64,000 bases of DNA from Moniliella sp. 'wahieum' (lineage: Eukaryota): positions 992,001 to 1,056,000 of the forward strand of contig RSEE01000004.1 of the NCBI GenBank assembly GCA_003971905.1, given 5' to 3'. Positions 691 to 60,848 of this stretch are shown piece by piece (position 1 is the stretch's first letter; the number at the start of each line of letters is the position of its first letter). Both the position numbers and the translations under genes were made by a program. The notes below the pieces were generated by a model, which ran no database searches, was not told where the DNA came from, and worked only from the letters and a program-made list of their open reading frames with translations.

Positions 691-1355
691 CGCTTCTCAA
701 GCTTAGTTTTCATAAGGTACTAGTATATGTTGAAACAGTATATTCGTTGATGCGCGGTACGGAGTATAGTGTCATCTCTTCCCGCTGTGGTCCAGCTGTC
801 CCCTTTTTCGGATCGTCACACTGTGGTGCGAGCGGGCCGTGTGTGATGGAGCAGATCAGAGCGGTAGGATGGGATTGTCAAAGCGTGACCAAGATGGGGT
901 ATTGTTGGAGAAGATGATAGCCCTAGTATAGGAATAGATGGAAGGAGCTTTGGAGGGATTGGTTCCAATGAGAGAATAGCCAAGCCATCAACAATACGAG
1001 GGAAGGGCGAGGTGTGACCTTCGTGAGGAGGTGCAGTTTGGTGGTTGCCAGTTACACTGTTGTTATTGGGAGAAAGGAAACACGGTTTGTATTTCTCCCA
1101 GAGCCATTGCTGCATCAATATTCCATCGCATCAATCTTCGACTAGAACTTCCGTCCTTGGCGTGTGGGAGGAAATATATGCCACGGCGGTGTTGTTAGAA
1201 GGCTGATGCATGATGCATGGTGCAGATGGCTGATCTTTTCACAATTGCACATGAAATGTCACATGTCACACACGTCACCCAACCCATCCCGGTCACTTGC
1301 CGGTAACCGGTAATCGGCAACCGGTTACGGTAACCGCGACTAAGGTTGATGCAGA

Positions 1356-1424
1356 TGGGGCTAGTGGGGGGTAGGAGGGGTTAGGCCGGCCGGTTAGGGG
1401 GATTGGGGGGTTGGGGGGTTGGGG
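1356..1424 (+). other. G-run cluster (potential G-quadruplex) with TTAGGG-like units
   Basis: About 8 runs of 4-7 G with short spacers, e.g. GGGGTTAGG, GGTTAGGGGG, TTGGGGGG. Confidence 0.5.
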
Positions 1425-1516
1425 CCGTGCGGGGTCACTCCACCCGTAGTCACTAGTCACTACTAGTAGTCGCTGTTCTACCCTCCGATTCGCGCCTCCA
1501 TCTCAGCCCTTTTCTG

Positions 1517-2385
1517 ATGCAGATTCCTGGCCGCATCTTCTACGTTTACTGGCGCTGCGAGTGGTCTTGGCGAGGCGGCCGCGCGCGAGCTGCACGCCAA
1601 GGGGGCTCTGGTTCTGCTCCTGGACCGCGATGCCGAGCGCGCGGCGAAGTGGCTGCGTCTCTTGGCCCGGCCCGTGCGCTGGCCGCTGGCGAGACGGACG
1701 TGCTGAATTCCGACCAAATCAACGCTGCCATCGCGCTGGCGGATGAGGCCTGGCCCAATGCGCAGCCAGGCGGAGTGGTGCATGCCGCGGGCGTTTCGGC
1801 GGCGCAAAAGACACTGGACAATGACGGTCAGCCGCACGACTTGGACCTGTTTCAAAAGGTGGTGGAGATCAACTTGGTGGCTCCTTCAACGTCGCTCGTC
1901 TGGTCGCCGCGCGCATCGTGCGCGACGTGCCCAAACCAGCAGTCAAGGCCACTGGCGAGTCGCGCGGGGTGATTATTCTCGTCTCCTCGGCAGCTGGCCT
2001 GGAGGGCCAAATGGGCCAGGTGGCCTACGGATCGTCCAAAGCCGGGGTTGTGGGGCTGGCGCTGCCCTTGGCGCGGGACCTGGCGTGGTGGGGGATTCGC
2101 ACGCTGGCCATCTGCCCAGCCATGTTTTCCACACAGATGAGCGAGCTGATTCCTGAGCGAGGTACGTGGCCCGTCCCCTCGCCACTTGGTACTTTGATGC
2201 TTGGTATTGTTGCTAACTCGTTCCTTCCCACAGCCAAGGCCCAGCTGCTGGCCAAGACCGAGTTTCCCCCGCGCATGGGTACACCCGACGAGTTTGGGTC
2301 GCTATGTACCATGGTGGTTGAGAACGAGATGCTCAATGGCAGCCACATTCGTCTTGATGGCGCTGCTCGTTTGGGGAAACTGTGA
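1517..2385 (+). CDS. Short-chain dehydrogenase/reductase, 3-hydroxyacyl-CoA dehydrogenase type-2 (HSD17B10-like); indel frameshifts; intron 2162-2233
   Basis: TGAASGLG Rossmann motif (second frame), VVHAAGV, RGVIILVSS, GQMGQVAYGSSK (YxxxK), LPLARDL, FPPRMGTPDEF, ENEMLNGSHIRLDGAARL. Intron reads GTACGT...GCTAAC...CAG. Confidence 0.9.
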
Positions 2386-6040: not shown

Positions 6041-6939
6041 CTGCAACTGTTTGAGGGAGAGGCAGCGGCGCGTGGGCCCAGGCCGGTCAGCGGAGGGGAG
6101 GCAGGGTGGGGGATGGGACGAGGAGGGACACGCACCGTTGGTGGTGCTCAAAGGAGACAGCAGAGGGGTGGGTGAGGGCGCACGGGACACGGGGGGGAGG
6201 CGCCGGTTGCGGTTGCGGGTGCGGTTGCGGCGGCGGTTGCGGCGGCGGCGGACTGTGGAGATGGCAGAGGGGGGCCAGGGGAGCCGGAATGGTGGTGGCA
6301 GGGAAGAGGAAATACGGGGCGGGGTGCGGGAGGCGGTGGCTCGAACGAGAGAAAAGGGTCTGCAGGCGGTGTGGGATGGTCGGGAGCAGGTGGGCACGGC
6401 GAGGGGCGCGTCGCGGGTGGGTGTTTGACGTAACAAACAGACCTCTCGGCCTGCTGCTCCTGCTCCTGGCGGCGAGCACTGGGCTGCGTTCCACGTTACC
6501 CGCGCAGGACTGGCTGAGTCGAGGCGGTGGGTGCGCTGTGCCTCTGCGATCTCAGATCCCAGGGCGCCAGGCGGGAGGCACTAGTCCGGCCAGGACCGGC
6601 TGGTTGCGGGCATCAGCGGGCAGCGTGGGAGTGTCGAGGCCAGCGCCCAACTGAATCCGACACAAACAAACCACCACGCCCCGTCACTGGTCACGGGTCA
6701 GATCGAGATGGGCAGCAAGGCCAGGGCGCCATGGCCGGCGCGAGCTACGCGGCAGCCGGGGGGCAGGCGGCCTCGCTTGGGCGCTTGCGGCGGGGGAGGG
6801 GCAAGAACGAAGAGGAGGCCGCAGCGTGCATCACCCATCCGCCCTCGCCTCCCGTACCAGTAGCGCTACCAAAGGCAGCCCGCCGCACAGGCCAGCGTCA
6901 CACGTCAGAACGCGCGTCAGACAGCACGCCACGATGCGT

Positions 6940-9900
6940 GACTAGTGACTCGCGACGGGCCACACAGATGTGCGTGCGACTCCCTGGCCGACAATCGATG
7001 ATTGATGATCGATTATGCATTACGCGTTACGCATTGGCGCACTTGGGCATTGTATGGAGGACTCAGTACTGAGTCTCAGCACTTGGTACTTACCGGACTT
7101 GCCACTGATCACGGATTCCCCGTCTCCTCCATGTCGATGGGTGCACGGCGACGTTGAAAAGGCCGGGGGAGCCCGCTGCTGACCGTCTGGGATTCTGAGC
7201 GCGCTGCGATCTAAGCACGGCGCGGCTGCTGAGCGGCGGAGCCGCTGAGCGCTGAGCAGCTGGCCAGGGGCCTGCGGCCAGGCCATGATCAATGATCGAT
7301 GATCGATATCGATGGTTAGGGGTAGTATTCCGTACAGTACGTGGTAACTGGTGACACTATTGGTGATACAGGGTCGCGGGGGTTCCATGCCACATGCAGC
7401 GTGTGACAGGTCACGCGTCACAGGTCACGCCGGTCACATGGGGTCGCAAAACTGGACAAAAAGCATGGTGCATGGGCGGACGCTCTTCCTTCAAGCTGCA
7501 AGCTTCCGAGCTTCAGCGCGCTTTCTTCCAACTTGCAGCCGACAGAGTATAGGCGTTTGTGCCTGTCATGTCATCATGTCATGCATGCCACGTATCACGC
7601 AGCATACATTATGTGCGGGTGAAGCGTGACCGTGACCAGTCACCGGCAGGCAGCCCAGACGCCGAGATCTGAGGTGTTTGACAGCTATTGTATTCCGGTC
7701 CCTACTGTCTCTCTCTCTTCTCCTTTCCTTCTTCCTTTTTTCTCTCTCTCTTCTTCTTCCCTAGTCCTTGCCTCCCCGCCCCGCCCTGGCTTTTGTATGT
7801 ACGGCTGTATGGAACGCGGGTTGCGTGGCGTGATGTCGGTGACCTGGTAATGCGTAACGCGTAACGTGCGGGCTCGGCCTCAAGCTTCAAAAGCTTCAAG
7901 CTTCAAGAAGTCTCAACGGGCCAGCGCCATTGGCAATCATTAATCATTAAATCAGTTGCACGACATACCTCTGCGGGCGGTGGCAGGCGGGAGCCCTTCG
8001 GTGGCACCAAAAGGATTTTTGGAGTCAACTGAAGGGCTAGATGACTGTGCCCCCGGCACAAGACGAGAGAAAACGTAGGATCGATCCTCGCAACGTCCGG
8101 TCTCTCGTCTCTGCTGCTCGATGTTCCACGGGCCATGTGGTGTGTACCACATGCACCCGGTGCCCCGCAGACATGCTCCAAGCGCAGAAGCAGCTCCGCT
8201 TCCCGCCGCATCACCTGGGAAGCATCGATTATGGGTTAACGTTTTAACGTTTAACGCGTTACGCGCTACGCGTTAACGTTTTCGTTCTTTCGCATTTAGC
8301 CGAATAGGCGTCCTTTCTTCGGGGAGGCCCTGGGAGGCCGCCACTCGCCGGTCAACCCGTGGATGTCGTGAACTCCCGTGACGCGTGAACCGTTCAGCCT
8401 GGGCGCCTCAGCTTTTCATCATCGATCATCGACCGTTTGTCATTAAATCATGAATCACCGGTCACCATCATCAAGTCATCAAAGTCATCGCGTTGGCGCG
8501 TCTGTGACAGAAGGCTGTGTGGCAAAGGAAAAGCAACAGCGGCAACAACTTGCAGCACTAGGCCGCAGCTCGGATATACACCAGGCGGGGTACCAGAGGC
8601 AGGTACGGGTGCATACTGGAGGGAGGTACGAAGGCTACGTATTGAATGAAAAAGTGCATGCTCCCCGTTTCCAGGCACGGGGGCACAACACGCAGAATTG
8701 CAGCAAGCCAGGACGGGGCCACTAGCCACTAGCCACCAGCCATCGGCCACATCGGCGCATCCGCCACCATCTTTCCCGCATTCGCTGCCACATCGTGTTC
8801 CACCTTTCCACGCTGTGCGAGCATGGCCGGCGGTTGACACCGTATGGGCTGGCCCGTTCCCGCTGTATTCGGCACCCTCCGTTCCGACCGCATCGTCTGC
8901 CCTGAAAACGTCCTCGATGTCGATGCGGTCGATCAAAGAACAGATGCCGGGAGGCCTCTCAACTTCACCGGTCACCAGACTCTAGAGGCCGGAGACCGAA
9001 GGTCGGAATGTCCTGAACGTTGAAACGTTGACTAACCTTGCGATGTCATATCATATTTTTTCCATCAAGTCAATTGAAGCTAAGCTGAAGCTTCACTTGA
9101 AGCTTGAAGCTTGAAGCTTGACTAGCAAGTGATTAATGATCAGTGACTAGTGAGTGACAAACGGCCTGCGCTTGGTGCTTGGCAGGCAACCGGGCCGGGA
9201 GCGGGCGTTGGCACACTACTAATAGGGTGTGTCAGACATACATAGGGTCAATCTTTATTGAGCGGCCGCTGCGTAGGGCTTGCCAGGGGCTGCTCCACCT
9301 CGGTTGGGTGTGGTTCTCAACGAGCGGCAAAAGGTGTTGGACGACCCATCGGCTCCCTCTGCTAAGGCGCTAAGGATGGTTGTTGATCGGTGATTAATAT
9401 GCAAGGTGCATATCATATGGATGGTGCAGGTGATGCATGCATGATGTCTGCTTTGCTGACCGGTGACCTGCAGCAGTAAACAGATGTTAAACGGCATCGG
9501 TCTTCCTCTAAGCTCCAGGGCCTCTACTAAGCCCCTAAGGCCTAAGGCTGAGTGTTGCGACGTTGAACGTTGAACGTTGACTGGCTTCACCGATCGCCGG
9601 GCCCGTCCGGCCTCACTAGTCCCGAGTCTCCGCGGGCTCCGAAAGCTGGTGCGCCTAAGCCAACGACTAGTAGCCTTCTCTCGTCCTGCTTCCTACCACG
9701 CCCGCAATCGATCGCTACGCTACTGTCCTAAACGCTTCCGCATCCATTCCGGTTTCCATCGCCGGGTGGACCAGGACGGCGCTACCTCCGGCCCATGGCC
9801 TAGACCGAAGGCCTAAGTCCATGACCGAATCGATACCATCCAAAGTCTTTCCAGCCTTCTCTGCTTGGCGCTTACGGCATCGGATCCCACCCCTCCGGTA

Positions 9901-11200
9901 ACCGGTAACCGGTAACCGGTAACCTCTCGACGATACATACCTATCGGTCGCTGTGGAGGATGATCGGTGATCGGTGATCGGTGATGCATTTTGAATGATT
10001 AATGACTGCATCATGCATCATGCATCACGCGTCACGCAGACACTAGTCACATGCACACATGTCACACTAGCTATCCCTAAAGCAGCCCTCAGCTAGTCAG
10101 CTAGTTAGAGATCGTCAGACCAGGTCAAACCGCCCCAGCAGGCCCCAGCTGGGTCCGTCGGCACGCCACTCGTCTGCGCGGGGACGTTCCTTGCCGTCGA
10201 GCCGATCGTGTGTGGAGGGGCGCGTGCAGGATGCAGGATGCATGATCGATCTGTGGTCCATGGTCGACGTTCTCTCTCTGCTGCGTGGACACGAAAACCG
10301 TTGTCGGCTGCAGAAAAAAGTGGCGCCTGACACATCCGATCCGTTCCCATATCGGTACGCGTTACACGCGTTACACACACGTTACCCGTTGCCACGTTTC
10401 GTAGGGTACGCGGTACGCGTTTAGCGCTTCGCGGCTCCCAGCTGTCTTGCTACCCACGCAACAAGAACAGGCGAGGGAAACGGTTCTGGAATCGAGTTGC
10501 TTCCCAAATAACGAAAAAAAAACTTTGTTGTGATGTGGACTTGCCACCGACCTCAGTGGAACGTGTTGAGTACGTTGAACGTTGACCACGTGCACCTCCG
10601 ACACCAAAACCCTCTTCACTGCTCTCGACCCTGCGGGGCTGACCGATTCAGTTACGCGGGTAAACTGCAACCGAAAAAATTAACCCGCAGGGAATATTCA
10701 TGTGTCGGCAGCCGAAACGGCCCCCTATGCTCTGCCGAAAAGAGCCAAAGCAGCGCATGCCGCATGCCACAAGTCACCACGTCAAAATCGTGTCCATGCC
10801 CAATGTGAGATGCCCTTACGTGTACGCACGTCCAGCATCCATCGTCTCTCTAGGTCCCGTCTCTATTATCTCTCGAATCATTTAATCGTCGGGCATCTCC
10901 AGCAGCATCAAACCCCGACCACGAGAGATGCGAGTCACATGTCACACGAGATCACACGCACCCACCCCTCGGATCGATGTCAGCGATGCCACAGAACCGA
11001 CGAAGAACGATTTGTATTTTGGATCGATAACATGTAGTGCCTGCTGGCTTTACCGGTTACCGGTTACCCCGGTTACCACGGATAAATAATACGGTACCCT
11101 ACGTTCTGGACCATGGTCCTTCAAGTTGAAGCGTCTCACGCGTCTCACGCTGGACTTTGAACTTGACTTATTGAATAAGCTTCAGGCATCAGCTTCATGC
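6940..11200. repeat. Dense field of 7-bp-period arrays of A-NNNN-T hexamer palindromes (intergenic)
   Basis: (AAGCTTG)3 9100-9120; (ACCGGTA)3 9901-9921; AACGTT-G-AACGTT 9566-9578; ATGCAT-C-ATGCAT-C-ACGCGT 10013-10032; ATCGAT-T-ATGCAT-T-ACGCGT 7008-7027; ACCGGT-T-ACCGGT 11052-11064. Confidence 0.9.
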
Positions 11201-12148
11201 CCATGCGGAGTGTGCACCCGCGGGTAGGGTATAATCAAAGCTTCGACGATAATTCAACGTTCATTCCACCCATTCCAGACCCAAGCGACAAACCGAACGA
11301 GAAGGCGCGAAAGCGACCACACCGAACGCACTGCTGTGGGAGGGTCGATGATCGACGATGGAGATCTCGACGATCTCGCACAGAGGAAACCAAACGAGAA
11401 AACGACAGAGACATGCACGGTACAAACGCGTCATATGGGCCTTTGGCAATTTGGTAGCTGGTTATTGCTAGTTGGGAAACGGGGTTCATCGAGACACATC
11501 ACAAAAAGAACGGGACAGTATGGCAGACGTTTCCCTCTGCGTCGTTGGCAGGCATGGCAGGCACACTCCGCCGTGCCCACCGACCCGCGTCCACCTTTCT
11601 TTCTCTCGTGCAATCAACAGCGTAATACCCGACGACGAGCGGACGCACAGGTATCTCGGTGTATACGCAAATGACTCGCACCCTCAGCCCCAGCCTGGAC
11701 TTGGGGTGGGACCGAGTCCAAAACCACCGGGGCGCGATCGAGGTGAGAGGCGTGTGAGGAAAGTCTGACGCCCTGAGGGCCAACCATCAGAGAGAGCGCC
11801 GGATGCCAACATGGGGAAACAAGTCTATAACATCAAGCGACGGAAACCAAAACGAAAGAGACAAAAGAACATTGCATAGAGAGACCGTGGGTCTTTACTG
11901 AGACCTGCGTCCTAAGGCTAAAAAAGGTTCAAAGGCACAAAGTTTGAAGCGAGAAACAACAGTGCAAGGTGTACCATGTCAACCCGCCCGGAAAAAGACC
12001 GTGACCGACTTCCATACGAAGCATGGCAACGAGCGGAAAAACACAAGGTGGGAGCGAGTGGGGTGTGGCGTATAAGAAAGGGAAGAGACTGTTGGGGGAT
12101 ATAGATAAAAGAGAGACGTGCTGGCAAAGCAGGGACAAATCTAGCTGG

Positions 12149-14587: not shown

Positions 14588-14959
14588 GCCGCTGCTCTGA
14601 ATCTGACATCTGACGCGTGACGTGTGACGAGCACAAGGCACACCCAGCGCTGCCTGCCTGCCGCCTGCCGCCCTCCGGCATTCGCTGCGTGGTGCACCCG
14701 GTGCGCCCGCCTCCGATCCGCCGATCCTGGCAGCATCGCGCCAGTGTATCCGCCCCCCGCCCTGCACGGGGTGGGTGGGTCCTTCGATACAGACGCACAG
14801 AAGCACTAGTCATCTTCGCACTCATCGCAAGCCCCATCCGCTCTGCTCCGCCCGGGGTCGCATGGCTGGGGGCACGGAACGCAACATAAAATACACACTG
14901 CTGCCCCGCCTCGCGCCCGAGCAGGAAAATTTGAACCTCCAAATTAGGCTGAAGATCTT

Positions 14960-15835
14960 GAGAGCGTGATTAATGATTGTCGTGAGCGTGATTAACGTGA
15001 TTGAATACTAAATTGACAAGCTAGTCACTCTAGTCACTGTGATACGCGAACGCGATGCATGTGTGACGGGCTCGTCATGCAACGCGTGGTTGTCACGTGC
15101 CATGTTGCTCTGCCTTGCGCAGCAGGCTGCTAAGCCTGCTAAGTTAGCGCTAAGGCTTAGCTTTTAGCGCTAAAAACGCTAAAAGAGTGCGAAGCGCTGG
15201 TATAAGCTCTGGGGAGGGCTGAGGCTGAGGCCTGAGGAGCTGAGGCACAGTACTGCGGCCTACTGCGACCCAATACTCAGTATTATGCCGCGTCGCTGGC
15301 CGCCACCCGTAATCTGGCCGCCCTGCCGTGTCGCTGCTATGGCTGCAGAGCATGTCATGCATCATGCATCATGTCAGTACGACTGATGCTTCCTGTTGCT
15401 CGAAGCAATGTAGCGTTTGTACACAGCCTCCAGCTTGAACAGCTTGAACACGCGACGCTGCATCCCCACAGCGCCGGTCTCGGCAAGAGCTTAGGTAGTA
15501 AGTGATGGTGCAGCATGCTTCGGCGCTTCGGCTTGGAGCAGCTTCAAGCTCTTCAAGGTTCAACGTACTCAACGTTCATACACATCCTGCGTCCCGTTGC
15601 AGTATTCTCACACACACTTGCGCCAGTTGGTACCTCAGCGCCTCAGCTAGCATTCCTGCGTTCAGGCCGAGCGAGCGATCTTCGGCTCCTCGCTTGCAAA
15701 GGCCAGCAACCAACAGTGTGACCTTCTGTGGCGTGGGTGGACGCTTGCATCGCATGTCACATGCTTCACATGCATCACCCAGCCTCGGGCATCGATCACC
15801 ATGCACATCATGCATCATGCATCATGATCGCTGCA
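14960..15835. repeat. Cluster of 7-bp-period A-NNNN-T palindrome arrays upstream of glyoxal oxidase
   Basis: ATTAAT ~14969; TTTTAGCGCTAAAA 15162-15175; TGAGGCCTGAGG ~15226-15237; ATGCAT-C-ATGCAT ~15357-15369 and 15810-15822; ATGTCACATG ~15754. Confidence 0.8.
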
Positions 15836-18800
15836 TGGCACCTCTCTTCTGCTGCGCCCTTCGGTCTTTTGCGCTCCGCTAGGCGTCGCTCCGGCTTTGC
15901 ATGCCACTGCGCCAGAGCCAGCGCGAACAGCTCGCGGACCAACCCCAAGCTGAGGTATGTAGATGTGTATTTGGGCGTTGGGGCGCTTAGGCTCCCCTTC
16001 CCACGCGTGTCCTGCCACGCGAGGCCGCACGTGACGCCCAATCCATAAGAAAAGAAAAGAGTGTGGTGTCTTCGCATGCCACGGTCCTCTCTTTGCCTAA
16101 CAGCAGTAGGCAGACCCACTCTCTATGCCTCGTGGATTCTATTGCCCTCTCAGATCTCAAAACTCCCAGAGGCCTCCGTTGTTTTGTCCTCACCGCCTCG
16201 TCTGTCTCTTGCATTTTTTGCTCCGGTAGAGAGAAAGAAAAATAAGTGAGAGATTCCGATCCTAGTATTGAGCTGCTCCTACATATCCAGTAGGCTCGAG
16301 CATTATATCGTAGTGTAGTCATGCTGTGGGGGCTCTGGGCGCTCCACCTCACCGTTCCTTCTCGCAACCAATTTTCCTTTCTTGCCTTGCTTGCGGCCCT
16401 CTGAATTAAGGGTCTCGCACACATACCCACCCAGGCTGTGCTAGACCAACACAGTTCTCCACATCTTCCCTGACCCGCCTGACCCCCTGACCCCTTTGTG
16501 TGTATTTTCTCTCTCTCATCACACGTTGTTTAGCGTGTGGTTGCGTCTCCATTTCCTCTGGTATGATAAAAGGCATCATTCAAGTATCCGGCCTGAATGA
16601 ATATCAACGTGCAACGACATCCAAAGCAATACCCCCCTCACTCTCAGCGTCCCTCAAGTCGTTAGGCGACCCTGTGGCCAATAAGCGAGGTATGGGTTCA
16701 ATTCGCATTCGAGCGCTATGGTGAAATCCTCGTCATAGTTATTCCTCCAATTAGCAATGTATCAGAGAAACAGGATCAGCAAAGTATAGGGTGAGAAGAT
16801 CGGTCTGCTGTGCTCACATGGAGGACCGTGTTAACAGACATCCAGGTCCGCGCCCCCATATCCTCCCCCATCTCGTCCCACACTTTGGGGCGATTATGGA
16901 ATGGATACGTACTCCATTTGGTAGTACTATTCTTGGATGATCCTGTGTGTCCATCATCTCTCCGTTCTGCCTCTCGTCTTTGTACAAAGGCCATCTTTCG
17001 CGCCATCGGCACATCGTTTAAAGCCGGCATCACTTCAGTTACCGTGCCCTTTTGTCCTTATACACGGTATATTATTCCGGGAAAGGCGGGATCCATCTGC
17101 CTGATGAAGCACCAATCAACTCATCTTATCGGCATCTCTCGATTCAGTGAAAGCTCATGACCACAGCATTGGTGGCTATGGCGGCTATAACAGTAAGACT
17201 GGACTATTACAGCTGAGTGTTGTGCATGTGCACGTCATATGATGTGTCGTAGCATTTCCTTTTTGTTGTGAGCAAAGCAAAGAAGGAAGTAGCGAGACCG
17301 TGGCCATGAGATGGGCCCGGGTGCATGGGCACAAGAAGAGAGGGGGGGGGTTCAGCAGAATGGGGCACCGCGTGGCACAATGTTTGCTATATAGTGACTG
17401 CCTAGTGTACGTGTGAACAGGGCTATAATGTTGGGAGGTGGTGCCAAATGGATTAACTAGGAAGCTGTAAAGAACCATCCTAATCGACTGTGGGATAGTA
17501 TCTGGTGCCTTCATACCCTCCATTCAATAGAATCGTCCTATCAAAAATTCATTGGCAGGTGCCACTTAACGACAGACTTCGTCTCCACAACCTGATCGCG
17601 CGTACATACGCGCCCCAGCTTGTCGAAGTCGCACCAAGCGTCAATGTATCGTCGATTCAGTCTCACTCTCCTTTGTTTGATCAAAACTACACGCAATCGC
17701 TTCCACAAAAAGTCCAATGTATTTGACTATGAACGAATCGCTGTGGCACAGCCGTTAGTTCAAAACAAATCGACCCTCTCTTCCACTCTGAGAGAAACAC
17801 GAAGACAAGGTGTGAACCGCCAATTCGCATGACATTTCTCCTTTATTTTGTTCGGATGCGCCTCGTCCCCCAGCTCGCAAAGAACTGTGCGAATTGAAGA
17901 ATTTAGAGGGTGCGTATCGACCACAGTCTGTGCATTTGCCCATCGCCGTGCAGAAATATATAGGTGTACTGCGAAATGTTTTAGATCATAGAAGAAAACA
18001 GGGTCAGGCTCGACGATCTCATAGGGCCAACTACTGATGAGAGTTGGGGGGTCGAGGGTGACGCTATCGCACTGGTGGTGGTTACGATTAAGCCGGCCAG
18101 CAATGCCTGTAGTGGAGCTTGACATCAAGCAGCGAGTCGTCACCAAGGGCTAAGCTGCCGAACGAAGAAAACACAGGAGAGAGAAAACAAGGAAACTCCT
18201 AGGCATGAGGAGAGGAACTGTCGGGGCGTTGGCCAAAGCACGAACTACTCTCCAGTGTCTCACCAGCAGTCAACAAGCGTCACTCGCGTCACGTTGCCAT
18301 TACACACAGGACTATGACCCCCACAGTTATATTCTCCCGAAGCACAGGCCAACATCGGCATGTGACCATCATCGCTCTTCCTCTGAGTGAAGTCTTGTTA
18401 GTTAATGACGTGGTCACCGCGTAGCACTGCGAAAGCTTCTGGGCTAAGAGAGATAATGGACCGTCCAATGGCCTGCTCCACATAAGGATCATCCACAGAG
18501 GTTCAACATCGGGCGGCCCCACGAGAAGTTTTGAGCGTTGGCCTCTCCATCGTTGCCAACTCTCACTGGCAGTTTTGGCATATAATACAAAAAACTTTTT
18601 TAGATGTCTGCATCTAACCAAAAACCCTTTGGTATATTCACGGGTCGTCGACGACCTAGGTGCCACTTTGTGACGATGTAACTACTGCATTCATACTGTT
18701 TTCGAAATTCGCGACATGGACAGAAACGCTGGACCCATACCGGAGGGGTTAATTGCTCATCCACCGGCGTATGTGCGTGTATTGTCCAACTCAATCAACA

Positions 18801-19859
18801 AGAAAAGCAAAAGTGGAGTCTCGTCAGACAGCCACAGAACACGCTCTGCCTCACGCCATTGGCTTCCACACTGGATGTAGCGCCAGGGGACACGAATGTG
18901 CTTGCGCGTAGTACTTGTGAGTGATTCATCGTATTCATCCATCCGTAATGATCAGGACTCTTCGGCCCGCTCATCCCCCAGTGCTCAACCATCTTCTTTT
19001 GTGGCAATCGTGCTGGCATGCTGTTGGGACGCTAGTGCCGTGTCAAGAGCATAGCCGGACTCTGGCGCTCCAGAAGCCACTTCCACCCAGCAGCTATAGC
19101 TCCCTTCGTTCCACCCGGGCGGAAGTTTATAGCAGTCCGACGTGCCTCTCCTTCTTGAAGCTTCGTCAGTCTCGTACCTTAGTAGTCTTCTCTCTCTTCC
19201 ACTCCCTCATCCTCCCTCTCGCTACTCTCTACTTTCGCACACCAGCAATCAATCCCTATCGTCTATTGACCTTCCGTTCTTGGCTGCCGTTTTCCCTTCC
19301 CTCAATTCACAAGGGAGGTTGGAGGGGATCTATGGTTACCGCGGTTATTGCGTCATGCTTGTACGCCAGGCGCTGAGGACGGAAACACTGCGCCCCAGCC
19401 GCTGGGGGAGGTGCTTACGTAACAGCGGCAATGTTGCACCTGCCTGGACTGCTGGCAAAGCCCATGAACGAATCATCCATCGATCGAAGCGCAGGCCGGA
19501 GGGGTGGTATCGATCCAGCCTGGGGAACGGCGGAAACAGACGCAAGCATGGCGGGCGCTGTTTTCAGCACACACCCAATCTCTTGCGGCTGGTTGCTGGC
19601 CGACACGAGGCCCAGCTACCGTCTTGCGGCCGCGCATCTCAATGTTCGCGGGTGAATTCATTGCATGTGGGCTGCCCAGACTGACGTAGATGAAGAATTT
19701 GGGCCGGCGCCTGGTACGCAACACTGGCGCTGTGCCCAAAAGGCAGAAGGCCAGTGTGCTTTTCTTGTTTTTTTCCCCTGCCTTCGCGCTGCCGACGCTG
19801 GCGGGGCGCAACCGAAGCTGTATCTGCCCACCACCACTACCACCACCACCACCACCACG

Positions 19860-24164: not shown

Positions 24165-25150
24165 CTGATGATCGATGAAGCTTGAAGCTTGAAGCACAAG
24201 AGATAAACCCGATAAAGGTATTGTCCATAGTGGAGGGACTGTTGCCTTGTAACCCAACTGCTCTCTGCCGTAGCTAGCGAAGGTGAACACAGGATGAGAA
24301 ATGAGGCGTGAGGGAGAAGCCCGCGCAGGGGGGCATCGCGTTGTAATATACATCGTGTGCCATCCAGGCTAGGGGCCTGTGTACTGCGAAGACTCACAGC
24401 GCAGGCGTTAGCGCTTAGCCGTCGTCGTTCCCCACGGCACACGACCCTTTTCTGGAGACAATAGTAGAAGGATGAATCGATGAAGGGAATGAGTTTTGCT
24501 TCTGTGAGTAGTAGAGATAGTGAGTAATGCCTGTATACTAGGTGTCAGCGGCACCGATCCCTATCAACATTGGTGCAGATGATTGATGTGCGTGTGGGTT
24601 GCTGAGCGCTGATATACCGCCGGAACGAGATGCCCAAGATATAGATTAGGGCCAACAGGGTTTGGAGGGAAGAGATCCGGGTGGCATCTGAACTGAAAAT
24701 CTGTGAATATTTACAACGGCGCAAGCGGAGCCAAGACCGGGGTATGTATACAATAGCGAGCAACTGCTGTATGACTGGTGTGGCGCAATGATTAATGAGG
24801 CCCTGAGGCCTGAGGCTCAGGCCTGAGGGAGCCCGGCAGGGCCTCAGATCTAAGACGGAAGAAACAGACAAAGTGGATTCGCGATTCCAGTGGGGCGTTG
24901 GACTGGCGTTGTGGGAGGCTCGCATCCTCGAGAACCGATCATCGATCATCGACAGAATTCGCGGATGCGGACGTGAGGCAGTGCGCCCGTGCCGTTGAGA
25001 TTGGACCCCGGGATTGGGCCCCGCTTAGGGTGCTGCTTAGTACTAGACAAGCAGGCAGCAGAAGACTTGGCGCTACGCCTTAAGCTTTCAGCCACACGCG
25101 TGACATCATGCATTGCATCAACCACGTCAACGCGTCCACGTTCAACTAGC
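24165..25150. repeat. 7-bp-period palindrome arrays upstream of the amino-acid permease
   Basis: ATCGAT-G-AAGCTT-G-AAGCTT 24171-24190; ATTAAT 24791-24796; AGGCCT 24806-24811 and 24819-24824; AGATCT 24846-24851; ATC-ATCGAT-C-ATCGA ~24938-24952. Confidence 0.85.
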
Positions 25151-27951: not shown

Positions 27952-28709
27952 TCTGTTCCGACTCCCTTTTCTTCTTCAATTGAACGTGACTCCCTAGCCT
28001 CTTCTGTAGCTCATGAGCAATGCATCAATACCTGCTCTCTTTGGTCTTTAACAACACAGCGTGGGCGCAAGAGATGAGATGTACAGACTACCCACTGATG
28101 GGACCCGGAGCGTTCGGAGGATCAGGAATGGAGGTGGGCCACACGCTGCGCGACACGGGAACGCAAGAGGCGCAGAGCGCGTCCCAGAAGGTGGTGCATG
28201 GCAGCACCGTGATGCCTTTGGAATGCCGGGAGAAGGAACTTCTTCGACTGTTAGAACAAGCAGAATGCGACAAGAACGCCAAGGTGCCAGGGATGAGAGC
28301 CCAAGAGCCGGTTTTCCCCCTGGTTTTGAAGACACGAGGATACTAGGGAACCAAGACAGCGGGCAAGATGCTTGGGCACTGGAAGTATTTGAGTACTGAC
28401 TCTCAATGGAGATGGTTCACCGTACGTTCACCCCTCGATGTCTACCACTTTCATCCGTATCCACATGCGCTTCCTCGATTACGGGAACGGATGGCGGGCA
28501 CCAGTGGGTCCAGATCTCCTGTGGCGATCCTCCAGGTTCCTTAAGCGGGGTTGGCGCTACTGCAAGCAGCACACGCAAGATGAATGGTCGGTTTAGGCGT
28601 AGCGTTTCCCTGCCCCAGCCTTAAGCTCTGTCAATGATATGGATGCCAAGTAGAAAAAAGGGGCCAGAAAACAGGGCGGAGGTAGACCATACACCTGGGG
28701 AGGCCTGGG

Positions 28710-29365
28710 GCCTGACATGCACCTGACACTTGACATGTGACATGCATGACAGGAGGAGAATTCAGGGACATGTGCAGAGATAACAACGATAGTTATTATG
28801 TCTTTTGACGTCTCTCTCCTAGTCCACACAGTAGTCTCCATATGGTTTTGTGCGCACACCACAAAACGAGAAGAGTTGCAACGTTTTGTTCATGTTGGCT
28901 AGTACCTAGTTCTCATAGTTAGACTCTCCTGAGGCGGCCTGAAAGGCTTCTGTTGGCCTGAGGCTTGAAGCTTGAGGAGCCTGAGGCGGAAAGCGCGTAA
29001 CGCGTAAGGCCTGAGGCCTGAGGGGCCTGACACCCCTGGTGGTCCTGATAAGGATGCCTCTAAGATACCGCGCGTACCTGGCAGAGGTCCTATCTACTAG
29101 CCTGTCCTAATAACTTGTGTGTGGGGGAGTGAAATTGAATCCCCCCCCCCAGAAAGAGCCAGGGTAGATGGCTTTAATCCGGTGTATAGTGCGCTGATGG
29201 GGGCTGATGCGCTGATACGGGGTATAGTATTGGGGGAGTGTGGACTGATACACTGATGGGACTGATAGTTCGAGCAAGCGGGGCTACGCGCGGCTACGAG
29301 AGCCCCTCTTCCGCTCAGAGCTTCAGCCTTCAAGCTTCAAGCTTCAAGCTTTAGCGCTTCAGCGC
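28710..29365. repeat. 7-bp-period palindrome arrays upstream of the OPT gene
   Basis: TGACATGTGACATG ~28731-28744; ACGCGT-A-AGGCCT-G-AGGCCT 29000-29019; AAGCTT-C-AAGCTT-C-AAGCTT-T-AGCGCT 29332-29358. Confidence 0.88.
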
Positions 29366-29791
29366 CCTCGGGCCGCCTCCTGTGGGCAGGGCCGCGAGGA
29401 TCCACCTGGGCAGGGTTTACTTATTAGCCGCAGAGAGTCTGAAAGTTTTGAACGCCCAACTATCGATACTGGCTCAGCGCCACATGTCTTGTAGATATCG
29501 AGCTCACTGGCCCCGCCCCAAGGAATGGTCACCGGTCAGAGACCAGAAGTCAGCCCTGTAAGGCTATCATGATCGTGATCTCAGAGGTTCCCCGTGCCAC
29601 TAACAGGATCACACTAGCCGATTGTCTGAACGCACACAAGACATCCAAAACACTCATGGCAACTCCCGCTGGCCCTGATCGGACTGCTTTCCCCACTCGG
29701 GTTGGTCTCTCTCCTTCACCTCTTTTTTCCTGCTCCTCCATCACCTGCAACTCCACCGTACCTTCGCCACCTCCCCCTCTTCCGTTTCATT

Positions 29792-32627: not shown

Positions 32628-32712
32628 AATTTTCCTTCCTCCTTCTCTTCCCTCTTCCCTCTTTCCTCTTCCCTCTTCCCTCTTCCTCTCTTCCTCTTTC
32701 CACCTCTCCCTT
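32628..32712 (+). repeat. Polypyrimidine tract with degenerate CTCTTCC units in the OPT 3' region
   Basis: About 80 nt almost entirely C/T, e.g. CTCTTCCCTCTTCCCTCTTTCCTCTTCCCTCTTCCCTCTTCC. Confidence 0.8.
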
Positions 32713-34382: not shown

Positions 34383-34934
34383 GCCGTCCTGTTCCTTGCG
34401 TTCGCCATTCTCCCCATGGCTATTATAGTTGCCATACAACCTTTTCTCCTTAAACCGAACAGTGGGGTTTGCTCTCAATATATAGGGGAAGAACGAGAGA
34501 AATGTGTAAGGGCAAGACTGTGTGCCCTATTGCACATGTGATACCATGGATCCCCCACATTCCTCAGATACTCTCTTCATTCCCATGACCGTCGAGGAGG
34601 CCAGGATAGTGCCTGTCTCTTCTTACCACAGGTTTTGCTGTTGGTAATGCACTCCAGTAAGTTGCCGCGTCCGTTACCCTGGCCGAGGGGCCTCTCTATG
34701 GTGCATTGACTTGAGCGAACTTTTGTGCCCCTCCCAGGGGTCCACGTCAATCGTTGGCGCCCCTGTACCAATTTTAAGGGAGCTGATCAACGTGCTAGGT
34801 CCGCTAAAAGCGCCTAGCTGGCAGTTACTCTAAGTAGTACTACTGCATATTTCCTCTACGTAGAAGGCGGGGATCTACGAAACCGCAGGAAGCCAAGTCA
34901 TGTGGAAGGCGATCTAGTGGAGAGCGCCCGTAAT

Positions 34935-37761: not shown

Positions 37762-38383
37762 GCGATGCTGGGGCAGTAAGGTGGAGGTGCGCGGGGAGGT
37801 GCGTGCGGGGTGGTCCTCACTGCTCGTTCACACCGTCGCGGCCGTTCGTGGCGATGATGATGATGATGATGGCGGGGGCAGAACAAAAAAATGGGCAAAA
37901 AATTAGCGCCCCCTCGCGCCACACGACTGCGCCTCACTGCCCCCGAGCCTGGGTGGCGGAAGTCCCATTCCGCCTCGAGGGCGCCTAGACACTGGCCCCC
38001 TGGCGGTGGCCCTCCTGTGGGTGGGGGCACAGCATTCAGGATTCAGCGGGCAATGCGAAACACGCTAGGGCAGGGCGCATCGTTGCCGCCGGGGTGGAAA
38101 GGGGAGAGGTGATGGTGGAGGGCGTGGTGGAGGTGGTGGAGGCAGTGGAGGCAGTGGTGGTAGCGGGCCGGCTGAGGACAGGGAGAGGCGGCTGTAGCAC
38201 ATACCAGCTGTGCCCCCACGTGGCCTGCCCTGCGCCCCAAGCCCTCCCAAGCCTCCGAGCAACCGCCTGGATGCCGATCATCGATCATCGACCATTGGCT
38301 CGAGCTCAGCACCATCGACCACCGATGATCATCGACCATCGGGCCACAATTGCATACTTACGAAATGCTGCGCGCATTGAAAT

Positions 38384-39100: not shown

Positions 39101-39803
39101 CCGCCATACCCGTTTTGATGTCATATCTCCAGCCTTTGCCAGCGGGTGGTGTGGCCAACTTTGACCAGAACACACCAAGGATATCCACTCTGCTTGGGCC
39201 TTTGGATTCTGGAACAGGGAATGGTCCACAAGTGGAAAGGGTATATGCTGCGCTTGTCGCTCGACAGATCAAGTACCTTCACAAGCTCTGCCCCAGCGCG
39301 CGGATATTTTTGCCACTGCGACTATCCCTGTGGCTATGCTCCACCTCCATCCAGTGGGCGGCCGCTGTCGCTCCTAGTACCAAGGTAACGAGAGATGCGC
39401 TTTTGTCTGTTGCGACAGACCGCGTCGAACCACCCATATTATGTCCTCCATCTGTGCTGATGAAGCTGATGGTGCATGGTGACAGGCACGGCGATGTACC
39501 AATCGCTAGTGATGGATGGACTCTGGCTCACTGAGTAGATGCAATGCATTAAAGTATGAGTGTTAATTAGTAGTAGCCCTCAATGGAACAAGGATCTATG
39601 AATAGCGCATCGAGAGATGTATGGACACCATCATTTCCCTGAGCGCACCACACCCAAGCGAAACTATCGAAACCGGTAAGAGAACAAGAGGCAAAAGAGA
39701 CACGACCAAGAGACCGGGAGCAAATGGCCGGAGACGGGGGCGGATTCAAGCATCGGGTGCCCCCTCGACCTCGACATGACTCCCGCATCGGCACTCACTG
39801 CTT

Positions 39804-46836: not shown

Positions 46837-47550
46837 GGCGAATAGAGAGGGTAACCGGAGCGGTGGGGATGGAGGGCTTGTGAGGGGGCAACCTTCCTGG
46901 CAGGCCAAGTGTCCTACCAGGAGAGAGAGGAAAGAAGGCACGTCTCGCAACTCGCTGGCTGTCCATTTGTTACACGGAAAAAAACTCGTCCGTCGGATGA
47001 GCAGAGCGGAATTGGGGAAAGCGGAGGCATGGCGCCAGTGTTCTCTTGTCCCGCCGGTCTCGCCTTGCTGCTGTGTGACGTGTGATGCATGTGATACCAC
47101 ATGTGACTGTCACATGTCAACCCGCCCAATGCCCCTGCGCAGGGGCAGTGTCACCAGCCGAGGTGTGCTCAGCACAGCGCCAGCGTGTTGCCGCCTTTCC
47201 AACTTTAATGACAGTGGCCACGAGAAGAGGAGGATCCTTTTATACACGCTGTGGGGTAGCAGAAACATTAGGACACGAAAGCCACTAAAGGTCCTACCTT
47301 CCTACTTGCATTGCCCCGCCCCACTCGCTCCCTTTCGTCGACCACTCGCGCCCAGCCCACTCGCTTCCCATAAACGCTAACGCAGCAAAAAGTTAAATCA
47401 GCATCATTTCCGCCTCCTCATAAGCGTTTGGCAGCCGGGCTAGTATGTCCCGCCTGCTACCGCATGGACCCACAAAAGAATGTGTAGCCATATCATTACC
47501 AAAGCGATATGTGCACTGATGAGCCCCTCTATACGAGCGGCCTGCGACGT

Positions 47551-55309: not shown

Positions 55310-55934
55310 CACACTGTGGGATACGTTGTGGACCCCACACAGACAATATATGAAGTTTGCTTGTTGGAGCGGGATTCATCCATTGCGGATGGGTTTGTTT
55401 TGCGATGATTGCCAGATAGTATTGCGTTCAGCGTACGTTCATCAACCCACGTCGCCCGTCGCCGCCCCCGGCCCTCTTCTCATAGCCACAACCATTACCA
55501 CGGCAACAAGCATTATGCAAGCAGACCAGAACATCGTGTCCTCTGACTGCGGGGGACTGTCAACTGGGCAACCAACACCACCCAGGGTAATTGGCCAGCC
55601 ACTACATGGATGAGTAGGCCATGGGGGTCCAGGAATTGAAGCTTGAAGCAGCTTGACGCGACAAGGAGAGCTTGGATGGGGGGATTGACAAGCGAGCCAG
55701 TCCTGCCAGCCCACCCGCTCTCTCGTCACGCGAAAGCGGAACCGGCCGTGGGGTGGCGGAATGCACTGATCAGGCAATCGCTTGGGCGTGATCGATGATC
55801 GATGATTGATGACGAAGAAGAGCTATAATTAGGGCAACGGCAATGGCATCGGCTAAGCGCATCATCAGCACCGCCGCCCCACTCGCCCACCCACACCACC
55901 CACTCCGCAACCCGCCTCCCCGTCCGTGCCCACC

Positions 55935-57679: not shown

Positions 57680-57751
57680 TGGACGAACAGGGAATTGAAC
57701 CCCGGACCTCATGCATGCTAAGCAAGCGCTCTACCCCTGAGCTATCCGCCC
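57680..57751 (-). tRNA. tRNA-Ala (anticodon AGC), intronless
   Basis: GGGCGGATAGCTCAGGGGTAGAGCGCTTGCTTAGCATGCATGAGGTCCGGGGTTCAATTCCCTGTTCGTCCA; cloverleaf, G3:U70 Ala identity pair, A/B boxes, downstream T7 Pol III terminator. Confidence 0.96.
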
Positions 57752-58231
57752 TTAGATGAACGGTAGACACGGTGTGGAATGTAGTTCAGAGTGTCGCCTA
57801 GATAGCGGATTTTCCATTGGTTTATTCCTTAGCGAACTAGTTGAGCACCCAACGTTCTCCACCAACTGAACACCAAGCAGCTTGCTCTCCAATACACTAC
57901 AAACAGAATAACACCCCCCCTCAATTATAACCAAAGTAACGGGAACCAAAGAGAGCGTGCATAAATGGCGTTCAGGATGTTGGGCACCCATTGCGACATT
58001 ATTAGGGGAGGAAGAGAGGGGGAGATAGAGAAGCACGAGGGAGAGGAGGCACACGAGGGAGCGGGAGCAATGCTCATTTGAAAGGGATAGTGCTGGTGCA
58101 CCTATTTCAAACAGGTGCGGGTAGCCAAAACAATTGTCCAGAGGAGACAGCGGCGCGAGAGATTCACGACTGATGGTCCACAGGTGAGGCAGAACGGATG
58201 TAGGAACGGACGGGGTGGCCGTACTTGAGGT

Positions 58232-59944
58232 CTAGGCCTCATCGCCATGAGGCCCAGTGTAGGGTGGGGCGCTGAGATGCGACGAGGTGGGCGGAGTTTG
58301 GTTGCGGGCAGGTAGGAAAGCTTGCGCAAACCGACTTGGGGAAGGGGTACGCGCTACGTCCACTGTCACGGAACGCTGGTGGAATGACACGGGCGCCACT
58401 TGACCTTCCTCATCGTGGAGTAGGATCGAGTTGGATTCAGAGGCCAGGCCAGGTCCAGAGGGCATATCGATCCGGGTGGAAAAGCTAGTGGCCCGCTTTG
58501 GCTGGTTCATGGCGAACGCTTCTCCACCTTCGTCCGCCAGTAGCGTCTCCCTCTCAGCCTGGTGGGCGGTGCGACGAGTGGAGCCAGCACCGCGAGAAAG
58601 ATCGAAAGCAGAGTTGGGCCCCGAGGGCCGGATGCCGGCAACTCGCATCAAGTGGCGCGCCAAACGAATAGGGGGGCCGGCGATACGAGCCAACGACAAA
58701 GGCGGCACGACCTGGGCACGGCGTAGCAAGCCGTAGATGACACCCACGAGGGTCACTAGGAAGATACTTACCCCCTTGCCCAAAGCCTGAATGAAGCTGG
58801 CATCATTGGCGTGCCATGATGATCCGTAGAAGTGCTTAAAGAAGGCGTGCTCGCGGGCCTGCTCAGGCGGAAGGTTCTTTCCGTACAAGGATTTGGGAAG
58901 AACCCGCACTCCGGACCATCCTCTCGAGGGGTGGTCCATGTCAGACGGAAGACTGACCCCATTGGCATCAACCCACAACGAGTAACTGGCACTGACCAGC
59001 ATTGGCCCGGTTGAGAACATCACAGTGGGGTAGTGGAGGATGTAGTTGTGGTTGAAGAGGACGATGATTGAGCATCCTCTCCATGAATGGATGTTTGGGA
59101 ACGATCATCATAAGATCGTTAGAGACGCCTATTGGTGCGGTCTCGGCAAGACAGCCTCGAAGCGGAGGAAGAGGACCCATAGGTTTGAGGCAGCCCATCT
59201 AGATCCATGTAGATGCCACCAAAGTGATGCAGAACGAAGTAACGGATCGCATCAGCACGCTGGATCGGATATGGATATCCATCGAAGACGGGCAGGAACC
59301 AATTGTAATGCTTCTCGATGAAGGCTCGTGAGTTCTCATCGGTCCACAAAATGTAGTCGCTGACGATAAGGTGGTCAGGTCAGCACATGTCAGCCAGGGG
59401 GGGGAGAGAAGACGCACTAGTCGGGGTGCATTTTCCTGCACTCTCTCGGATTGGGGCCCACTTTTCTGGCAAAGTGTCGGTCTTCCAAGTTTGATGAATG
59501 ATGCGGGATCTTTTCCCCGGGGCGGACATCTTTAGGGCCTGTGCCTGGGGTGAAGTGGCCCTCATACACAGCCGGATCGGGTTGTTGCTGGGCCCGTGCA
59601 GTGCCGGTCGTGTTGAGAGGCGAGGCAAGCGTTTCGATCCCGGGCGTAAGGGGAGGGGAGGGTTTACGGAGTGTGGCCATGGCGCGAGGGACAGGTGTGG
59701 GGATTCGCATTGCACCAGGCAATGCGTCGTTAACCTGGGATGCGACGATGGCGGCCGCGGCAGCGGAGCCAGCGGCAGAGGCCCAAGATGCGACAATCAT
59801 CTGGATCTCCATGGGGGTGATCATGGCGCGGCGGTCGACATGGAAAAAGCTCCACACGCTGCCGAGCACGATGCACGTGCCCACGAGAATGAGCGAGAGG
59901 CAGATGAGGAGGACCGAGACGGTCCGGCGAGAGCAAAGGTTCAT
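58232..59944 (-). CDS. Inositol-phosphoceramide mannosyltransferase (GT32, Sur1/Csg1-like); intron 59360-59417; indel frameshifts
   Basis: N-terminal TM segment, IIHQTWKTDTLPEKW, WTDENSRAFIEKHYNWF, YPYPIQRADAIRYFVLHHFGGIYMDLD (DxD), PIGVSNDLM, MFSTGPM, FKHFYGSSWHANDA followed by a TM segment. Confidence 0.9.
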
Positions 59945-60848
59945 TGCGAGCAGCCAGCGAGGATAAGGGTCGGAAGCAGAGCGCGGGTCTGGGGCGTGGC
60001 TTGCAGGGGGCGGCTGCGTGAGCAGAGAGCTCAGGCTGAGCGCTGAGAGGCTGCGATCGGCGGGTGGAGGGTTCAGATGGGGGTGCTGCAGGCCATGCTG
60101 CGCCGCAGCTGGCAGACGGAAGGAACGATGCGTGGGTCGGCGGGCGGCGTCGGCGAGTGGGCGGGCGACGGTGCGGACGGCAAGGGGCAAGGCTGGAGAT
60201 GGGGGCAGGCGCGGGTGGTGGGGCGCTGGCCAGAAGACGGCAGGCCTCGCGCCGAGAACCAACCAAGTCAGCCGCAAGCCTCGGCATTCGAACTTCAAGC
60301 TTCAGCTAGCTTCAGGCCCAAAACGGCATGCCAGCGCTCACGGGTCACATGTCACACATACCCATCCTGCATCACGTGGCACACCGTATCGGCCGCATCA
60401 AATATCACATGCATCACACACCACCCCTATCTCTGGTTTGTTCGCATTTTTATAGCGTTCGTTTTCAGTTCCTTTCTACACACCGTCTCAGTACCCGGCC
60501 CACACCACCCCTTCTATAGCCACGCCGACGCTCACCATCTATGCAAGACGCCTGGCTTCTCTCTTACCCATAGGCCAGAACCTCCATCACCACCCCCTTG
60601 AATCCGTGTTGGATCGTCGTCGCAAAGGTCAATTGAACAAATGCAAAAGAACGTGACGTCGCTTCACAGTCTCATCAGTCGTGTCTGAGGTCGTGAACGG
60701 GAAGAGAGAAGAGCTTTTCGACCACATCGTGGGCGGGGGATTTGGCCTCTGTCCCCCACCCCGCAAGTCGCATCAGTGAGAAAAGATATGTAAGCAGGAG
60801 AGATCGTATGAAAACCACTGAGAGAACATCGGCATGTACGACGAGGGT

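Follow-up and report, generated by a model that had tools for sequence, protein, structure and literature searches.

Chains of A-NNNN-T palindromes in a 64-kb fungal DNA window follow a 5+2 rule at T-N-A and may record templated 7-nt insertions

In the footprints of hairpin-forming transposases and in V(D)J coding joints, a short direct repeat surrounds the reverse complement of the adjacent flank without any spacer, and the intergenic elements described here have the same build. Short template-switch mutations and synthesis-dependent end joining also produce inserts that copy nearby sequence, direct or inverted, whatever that sequence is, and we know of no such events with a fixed trinucleotide anchor or fixed lengths. 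PIF/Harbinger and IS5-type elements duplicate a 3-bp T-N-A (TWA) target, and the footprint of Tc1/mariner elements reads TA-CATG-TA. One study describes palindromic repeats in Fusarium mitochondria as mobile and of a new kind, and links them to insertions and deletions in intergenic DNA (PMC7218506). The present analysis concerns 64,000 nt of contig RSEE01000004.1 (positions 992,001 to 1,056,000) of Moniliella sp. 'wahieum', referred to below as the window, whose non-coding DNA carries chains of A-NNNN-T hexamer palindromes joined by single bases at a 7-bp period. These chains are probably the residue of a lineage-specific mutational process, namely a templated insertion of 7 nt anchored at TNA, and not a recognition code.

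All window counts come from this one window, with unrelated contigs as controls, and non-coding DNA was approximated by the 16,436 bp left after removal of stop-to-stop open reading frames (ORFs) of at least 150 amino acids, a crude mask chosen because the periodicity of GC content at third codon positions (GC3) was too weak for mapping genes. The window has 965 six-bp palindromes; at spacer 1, 26 same-class pairs join two hexamers that begin with A and end with T (A..T), while any other combination of class and spacer (0-6) yielded 0-5 pairs. Non-ORF DNA contained 22 such A..T pairs, whereas 200 dinucleotide shuffles gave 0.18 +/- 0.45 and never more than 3, and six of the spacer-1 pairs joined two different A..T hexamers (0.16 shuffled). 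Single A..T palindromes were also in excess outside ORFs (155, against 53.3 +/- 7.1 shuffled), whereas the C..G, G..C and T..A classes were at the expected level or lower; accordingly, the density of A..T palindromes was 2.76 per kb inside ORFs and 9.55 per kb outside, and that of the other three classes was 2.3-4.4 per kb, alike in both. Perfect tandem duplications of at least two copies numbered 43 at period 7 (3.45 shuffled), 9 at period 8 and 12 at period 9. A near-palindromic unit was present in 31 of the 43 period-7 duplications, where 10% was expected, and 30 of these 31 units were A-N4-T plus N; the longest period-7 arrays reach 4.3 copies, head to tail as in short tandem repeats.

These counts bear out the sequence-only reading, in which chains of A-NNNN-T palindromes with a 1-base spacer and a 7-bp period had been described, and when split by palindrome class, spacer length and ORF content they place the enrichment in the A..T class at spacer 1, with A..T palindromes denser outside ORFs than inside. 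The same reading had held that symmetry and spacing are conserved and sequence is not, and that the arrays are neither one microsatellite nor the site of one factor, and both statements agree with the 14 different inner 4-mers found. Most A-N4-T types are used, as had been noticed, but within TNA-N4-TNA words they number 14 of 16, not 13, with AAATTT and ATATAT missing. The clusters were found again at 1204-1459, 6939-11263, 14611-16159, 24169-24948, 28390-29538, 38278, 47110, 55637-55805 and 60037-60354, except that the one placed at 32766 is a degenerate chain.

The repeating unit is best written as T-x-A followed by a 4-bp palindrome. In the window, 89 of 196 TNA-N4-TNA words (45%) have a palindromic centre, compared with 3.4-8.1% for the 15 other XNY frames, and in the control, 638 kb of unrelated metagenome contigs, TNA (6.2%) was on a level with the other frames (6.1%) by the same statistic. 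Of the 89 words, 76 have identical x bases on the two flanks (G or C in 62 of them), 7 have complementary ones and 6 have neither. The flanking TNAs are therefore direct repeats, since selection for longer palindromes or hairpins would favour complementary x. The TNA-N4-TNA words merge into 64 distinct loci, at which runs of period-7 identity peak at exactly 5 (17 loci), whereas tandem duplications would begin at 7; runs of 3, 4 and 6 occur at 4, 5 and 8 loci, runs of 7-10 at 20, runs of 11-14 at 7 and runs of 17-23 at 3, and run length equals 5 modulo 7 at 20 of the 64 loci. In 16 of the 17 loci with a run of 5, the match reaches two bases beyond TxA, and on one side only.

The elementary form is thus a 12-mer, TxAN1N2 + N2'N1' + TxAN1N2, in which a five-base word is doubled around the reverse complement of its own last two bases, and which can be read equally as four direct and three inverted bases. 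An unbiased scan for a word of L bases, the reverse complement of its last p bases and the word again gave, at L=5 and p=2, 136 matches of which 91 begin with TNA; at L=5, only 7 of 260 matches with p=0, 5 of 120 with p=1 and 3 of 5 with p=3 begin with TNA. Block shuffles contained 0.28 TNA-starting 5+2 matches (maximum 3), no other length combination was enriched in the window scan, and the 5+2 matches that do not start with TNA are mostly other phases of TNA arrays. The base preceding xAN1N2N2'N1'TxAN1N2 is T in 91 of 94 cases, and the analogous construction on C..G, G..C and T..A hexamers occurs 4, 5 and 2 times, against 94 for A..T. The flipped pair is drawn from the N1N2 end at about 62 loci and from the Tx end at only 2; 11 further apparent Tx-end cases are units in which both readings coincide. 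At 25 of the 64 loci (runs 5-6) the element is 12-13 nt long and holds fewer than the two full units expected of a short tandem repeat, so these elements are not duplications of pre-existing bases. Whatever the neighbouring bases are, the two flipped bases always complement them, which indicates copying and not recognition by a protein.

In the mechanism that we propose, a single TxAN1N2 would be the empty site, and one event would add 7 nt at the T-N-A, doubling TxAN1N2 around N2'N1'. Such an event automatically gives an A-N1N2N2'N1'-T hexamer palindrome and a 7-bp period, whatever N1N2 may be: the flip supplies the inner four bases and the TNA anchor the outer A..T, and 5+2 adds up to the 7 bp. 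Repeated events at one site, or ordinary replication slippage, might then lengthen 12-mers into arrays of 2-5 copies, and if the outermost TNA of an array underwent a further event, the unrelated flank would serve as N1N2. A neighbouring palindrome with a new centre and the same middle base would result, which is the grammar noticed in the sequence-only reading. In the mixed chains the centre is usually replaced as a whole and the middle base x retained (8254, t/t; 10013, c/c; 24171, g/g; 60326, c/c/c; 6994, t/t/t in the last three units), although x changes at 29000, at 29332 and within the 6994 chain, and at 24167 one TGA is common to the left-hand and the right-hand element. Some arrays end exactly as the 5+2 scheme prescribes, namely (TTACC GG)2 TTACC at 11050 and (TCATG CA)2 TCATG at 15355, and some others fit such ends only with later mutation or slippage. 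Since 7-nt insertions shift the reading frame, they would be confined to non-coding DNA. The absence of a spacer before the flipped pair hints at a hairpin end that was covalently closed, or else at a template switch over a very short distance, and an anchor as strict as TNA hints at a nick or break that is sequence-selective. Among the options listed in the sequence-only reading, the best fit to 12-mers made of a 5-nt direct and a 2-nt inverted copy is the footprint of a mutational process that generates hairpins or switches template.

Several explicit schemes were written out and rejected. A 3-bp TNA duplication with 2 nt from each element end would need about 13 families with different ends and leaves the 5-nt repeat unexplained. 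The observed sequence is not produced by targets of 5 or 7 bp that are symmetric and gain 1+1 or 2+2 flipped bases, by hAT-like 8-bp targets, by double cleavage beside T on both strands followed by hairpin closure, or by flap or snap-back schemes. Inverted pairs of same-unit arrays 0.8-2.9 kb apart (6.9-11.4 kb) were considered as element ends, but they overlap instead of nesting and are without duplications. As other break-repair schemes fail to give the product, a phenomenological mechanism is preferred, that is, TNA-anchored templated 7-nt insertion, iterated or slipped. It is possible, though we hold this more tentatively, that a dedicated TNA-anchored activity, present or recent and belonging to an unrecognised mobile element or a host enzyme, places these insertions of '5 copied + 2 flipped' bases in intergenic DNA on the promoter side and so continually makes hexamer palindromes and 7-bp satellites; the agent might be a sequence-selective nick or break with hairpin closure, or an ultra-short template switch.

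A number of observations weigh against templated insertion. The whole case is built on one 64-kb window, and both the insertion event and its empty site are reconstructed from the sequence. Runs of 7-10, found at 20 of 64 loci, suit a 5/12/19 series only if later mutation or slippage is allowed; the polarity towards the N1N2 end is predicted by no symmetric break-repair or transposon model written out; and the flipped tail is constant in length, unlike usual end-joining footprints. In addition, 42 loci are clumped in 6 non-ORF segments (8,620 bp in total), while 12 other non-ORF segments (7,271 bp, 364 TNA sites) have none, among them both convergent 3'-3' spacers and a 2.4-kb spacer in which TNA occurs 134 times, and several arrays lie 10-300 bp upstream of start codons or of a TATAA word. 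Because only some intergenic spacers carry elements, the process is either regionally targeted or only regionally tolerated; either it is aimed at promoter-side DNA or its products are retained there. From the clumping and the positions upstream of starts and TATAA, a promoter function, original or later acquired, is possible. The remaining 22 of the 64 loci lie under the crude ORF mask, most of them, by coordinates, beneath ORFs without Pfam support in array-bearing spacers, and the only loci in Pfam-supported coding sequence, 13057 and 25974, are both runs of 3, which is the chance level.

The tight clumping in promoter-side spacers would also suit an insertion preference, as expected if the elements were excision footprints of a hairpin-making cut-and-paste transposon (hAT, Transib/RAG or MULE), with a 5-bp TNANN duplication on insertion, a 2-nt palindromic addition on excision and re-insertion building the arrays. 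A 5-nt direct repeat with a 2-nt inverted copy of the adjoining bases is the product expected from a duplicated target with P nucleotides, hairpins on the flanks and footprints at the donor site are known for hAT, Transib, RAG1 and a MULE according to passages of PMC5499845, and 5-bp duplications are given as unique to Transib among eukaryotic DNA transposons in passages of PMC1131882; the latter passages also describe Transib targets as GC-rich and symmetric, for example CASTG, and fungal Transib as known only from soybean rust as of 2005, neither of which favours such an origin here. We regard it as unlikely, since a symmetric transpososome should treat both flanks equally and use a symmetric target, whereas the split is about 62 loci to 2 and TxAN1N2 is asymmetric, and since the tail length is invariant (7, 5 and 3 TNA-anchored matches at p=0, 1 and 3, against 91 at p=2). 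Nor does the 64-kb window hold a resident element with inverted ends, matching TNANN duplications and a transposase: the single match for ends and duplication lies in coding sequence, unanchored 5-mers gave 18 matches, and a scan of 66 window ORFs for transposase domains found none. The distribution over spacers, with loci upstream of ORF starts or TATAA and none in the 3'-3' or 2.4-kb spacers, speaks for selected cis-elements too, that is, promoter or insulator modules which are read by a shape-sensing or dimeric factor or act as cruciforms or slipped DNA, and which duplication merely builds. Such a role as the source of the pattern seems improbable, because the use of 14 of 16 possible centres leaves no common recognition sequence, the property 'complement of the neighbouring two bases' is unreadable by any protein, the middle base is direct in 76 cases and complemented in 7, and only one of seven arrays folds better than shuffles while the 12-mers stay unfolded. 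The TNA-N4-TNA code read by a dimeric factor, offered in the sequence-only reading, likewise leaves the always-complementary two bases after the five-base word unexplained. Secondary use of DNA born by mutation is compatible with these points.

Many loci are plain tandem arrays of 2-4 copies, and T-x-A serves as a three-base loop in the predicted hairpins, both of which would be expected under ordinary microsatellite slippage in which near-palindromic 7-mers win because hairpin-prone slipped strands escape repair, as in the CNG analogue drawn in the sequence-only reading. Slippage is nevertheless a very unlikely source, because the 25 elements of 12-13 nt cannot be obtained by duplicating pre-existing bases and the excess of the A..T class (94, against 4, 5 and 2) has no reason in stability. 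Hairpin stability is itself weak: when DNA folds of seven arrays or elements were compared with shuffles, the four-copy ACCGGTa array gave z -3.2 and the other six z -1.6 to +1.1, so that one in seven folds clearly better than composition-matched controls, and the 12-mer has no fold at all. One study reports that the expansion of structured repeats is held back by the stalling of a model replicative polymerase on them (PMC7441554), and together with the folds this leaves a CNG-like structural role only weakly supported; the hairpin or cruciform inference of the sequence-only reading, in the form given there, is not borne out by these folds or by a middle base that is direct in 76 of 89 words and complementary in 7. 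An assembly or base-calling artefact is hardly credible, as the pattern spares coding sequence, obeys a strict rule of biochemical appearance, and has mixed junctions of the same kind in unrelated metagenome contigs.

Those contigs were scanned for (AAGCTTS)3, which gave 121 loci, at least one of them bacterial (in L048), and only a handful of the loci carry other A..T units. Four eukaryote-like contigs (L047, L011, L079 and L087) have other A..T units and mixed junctions of the window kind, such as AAGCTTt ATCGATt in L047 and AACGTTa AAGCTTg in L011, and no homology of the metagenome contigs to the window was found beyond the arrays. The occurrence of window-type junctions in independent assemblies makes an artefact of one assembly unlikely, and since the TNA rule is at background overall in the metagenome contigs, the grammar is a property of this genome. 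Two arrangements were seen in passing. In the bacterial-like contig L048, inverted (AAGCTTG)n arrays bracket a 23S_rRNA_IVP gene between PAPS_reduct (cysD-like) and GTP_EFTU (cysN-like) at 2340-2800, and L079:1-20020 contains a tandem repeat of about 5.5 kb made of helicase-like (AAA_11) gene pieces, with 7-bp A..T arrays in each copy.

The individual loci are collected in Table 1.

Table 1. Arrays, 12-mers and mixed chains in the window (lower-case letters are spacer bases; n, number of copies)
Positions	Sequence feature	Strand	Remark
1204..1228	(TGATGCA)n, 2.3 perfect copies, then a mutated third		
1256..1336	(ATGTCAC)2 and degenerate (CCGGTAA)n array		
1447..1462	(TAGTCAC)2.3 array (ACTAGTc)		
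6938..7035	GTGACT A GTGACT, then mixed chain ATCGATg ATTGATg ATCGATt ATGCATt ACGCGTt ACGCATt		
7243..7314	(CGCTGAG)2 and (ATGATCG)n arrays		
7852..7950	(GCGTAAC)2, (AAGCTTC)2.4 and (AATCATT)2.3 arrays		
8236..8280	Mixed chain AACGTTt / ACGCGTt ACGCGCt ACGCGTt AACGTTt		
8455..8466	Elementary 12-mer TCACC GG TCACC	+	Identical copy at 8965-8976
9014..9153	AACGTT 8-bp variant; (TTGAAGC)n, 3.7 perfect copies; TGATTAATGAT; AGTGA CT AGTGA		Last at 9142, a 12-mer on the other strand
9457..9580	12-mer TGACC GG TGACC (9457); (CCTAAGG)2; (ACGTTGA)3		
9895..9924	(CCGGTAA)4.3		Longest perfect array; sole array with a hairpin beating shuffles (z -3.2)
9961..9985	(TCACC GA)n, equal to (TGATCGG)n	-	Exception: flipped pair from Tx end; one of 2 such loci
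9994..10038	AATGA TT AATGA, then chain ATGCATc ATGCATc ACGCGTc ACGCag		Middle base kept, centre new
10225..10585	Degenerate arrays: TGCAGGA, ACGCGTTAC 9-mers, GGTACGC, ACGTTGA		
10934..11081	GTCACA T GTCACA; (TTACCGG)2.7		Second ends exactly as (W5 P2)2 W5
14611..16159	TGACG CG TGACG (14611), TGATT AA TGATT, CTGAGG C CTGAGG, two (TCATGCA)n, TCTCA GA TCTCA		Upstream of glyoxal-oxidase-like gene
24167..24952 cluster	GATGA TC GATGA joined to (TGAAGCT)2.9		Joined via one common TGA
24167..24952 cluster	TTAGC GC TTAGC (24408), GCTGA GC GCTGA, AATGA TT AATGA, (CCTGAGG)n, (CGATCAT)2.4		
28731..29538	(TGACATG)2; ACGCGTa AGGCCTg AGGCCTg; AAGCTTc x3, then tAGCGCTt; GGTCA CC GGTCA		
38275..38291	(CGATCAT)2.4		Between Mpp10-like gene and next ORF
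47108..47119	12-mer TGTCA CA TGTCA	-	About 140 bp upstream of URA2/CAD-like ORF start
55636..55812	(TTGAAGC)2; (TGATCGA)2.6+		Second ends about 10 bp before a TATAA word
60035..60356	GCTGAG C GCTGAG; CTTCA AG CTTCA; chain GCATGCc AGCGCTc ACGGGTc ACATGTc		

The window DNA looks eukaryotic, most likely fungal, and the genes around these loci form a nuclear-type set, with a URA2/CAD-like GATase-CPSase-ATCase gene (minus strand, 39.8-47.0 kb), a glyoxal-oxidase-like gene (minus strand, 12.1-14.8 kb), and genes for Mpp10, an amino-acid permease, an OPT transporter, a GH38 mannosidase, a Myb protein, mitochondrial ribosomal protein L20 and a pyruvate-dehydrogenase E1 subunit. One tRNA-Ala is the sole Rfam or ARAGORN match in the window. 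The Mpp10-like protein has 17 database homologues with a top identity of 45%, and for the ATCase part the nearest Atlas cluster is fungal (Zoopagomycota or Basidiomycota clusters). The element-free, TNA-rich spacers lie at 16530-18920, 34475-34842 and 39532-39779, two of them being the convergent 3'-3' spacers, and no Pfam match was found in the 10 ORFs tested around the 2.4-kb spacer (16.0-18.7 kb).

Several other features stand in or beside the arrays. Relatives with period 8 or 9, in which the hexamer is kept and the spacer has 2-3 bases, occur at 9016-9031 (AACGTTGA), 10357-10385 (ACGCGTTAC) and 15431-15450 (CAGCTTGAA), and they are unexplained by the 5+2 scheme. Positions 7020-7035 and 7849-7864 form a perfect inverted repeat of 16 nt that includes the imperfect unit ACGCAT. 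The 7-mer AGTACTA/TAGTACT is found 11 times in non-ORF DNA, with 0.7 expected (around 4512, 16922, 25038, 34835 and others), mostly as single 8-bp palindromes TAGTACTA outside the 7-bp arrays, and may be a separate motif. Telomere-like words (GGTTAGGG / TTAGGG) and G-rich 8-mers adjoin arrays at 1367-1424, 7316-7325 and 25024-25030. Long CT-rich intergenic tracts lie at 7690-7770 and 32633-32705, including a (CTCTTCC)n array, and an ORF without a Pfam match (21781-22575) contains a 54-nt coding tandem repeat in four copies at 22200-22543.

Should a real enzymatic event lie behind the 5+2 rule, the rule would be a clean and countable mutational signature, and it is simple enough for scanning any genome. 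Palindromes, restriction-like sites and short satellites would then all arise from arbitrary sequence through one process, whose products would show where in the genome it may act. The rule would also offer a way to trace the nuclease, transposase or repair pathway at work in a little-studied fungal lineage, and would help to test whether targeted mutation, rather than selection, shapes promoter DNA.

Compared with hairpin-transposon footprints, the window elements have the direct repeat flanking a scar (91 TNA-anchored matches) and two P-like nucleotides from the adjacent flank, and their 5-nt duplication recalls Transib/RAG; however, the two flanks are not alike and the scars do not vary, as the tail is strictly 2 nt, untrimmed and one-sided (about 62 to 2), the TNA anchor is asymmetric, and the elements are iterated into arrays. 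As in template-switch events, the inserts consist of bases copied nearby, five direct and two inverted, but they are anchored at TNA (T upstream in 91 of 94, other hexamer classes 2-5) and fixed at 5+2. PIF/Harbinger, IS5 and Tc1/mariner elements share with the window the trinucleotide anchor and duplicated target words around a 4-bp palindrome, whereas here the duplicated word is of 5 nt instead of 3, most middle bases (62 of 76) are G or C and not A/T, and the centre is set by the flank and not by fixed element ends. CNG-type hairpin repeats are similar in their self-complementary tandem units with a regular mismatch and in having predicted hairpins, and they differ in that the window arrays have period 7, 14 units and at most 4.3 copies, that six of seven folds are no better than shuffles, and that the elementary form is not a tandem duplication. 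The palindromic repeats of fungal and algal mitochondria are organellar, and the passages of PMC7218506 mention no 7-bp period or TNA rule, while the window DNA is of nuclear type. No description of a TNA-anchored 7-bp palindrome rule was found in full-text literature, literal array sequences included, with subscription journals outside the coverage. A dedicated TNA-anchored insertion activity, if true, would be a mutational signature and a repeat-generating mechanism without a described counterpart. The elements themselves are akin to known kinds, as footprint-like or template-switch insertions which seed short satellites, with a substantial chance that the activity behind them is new.

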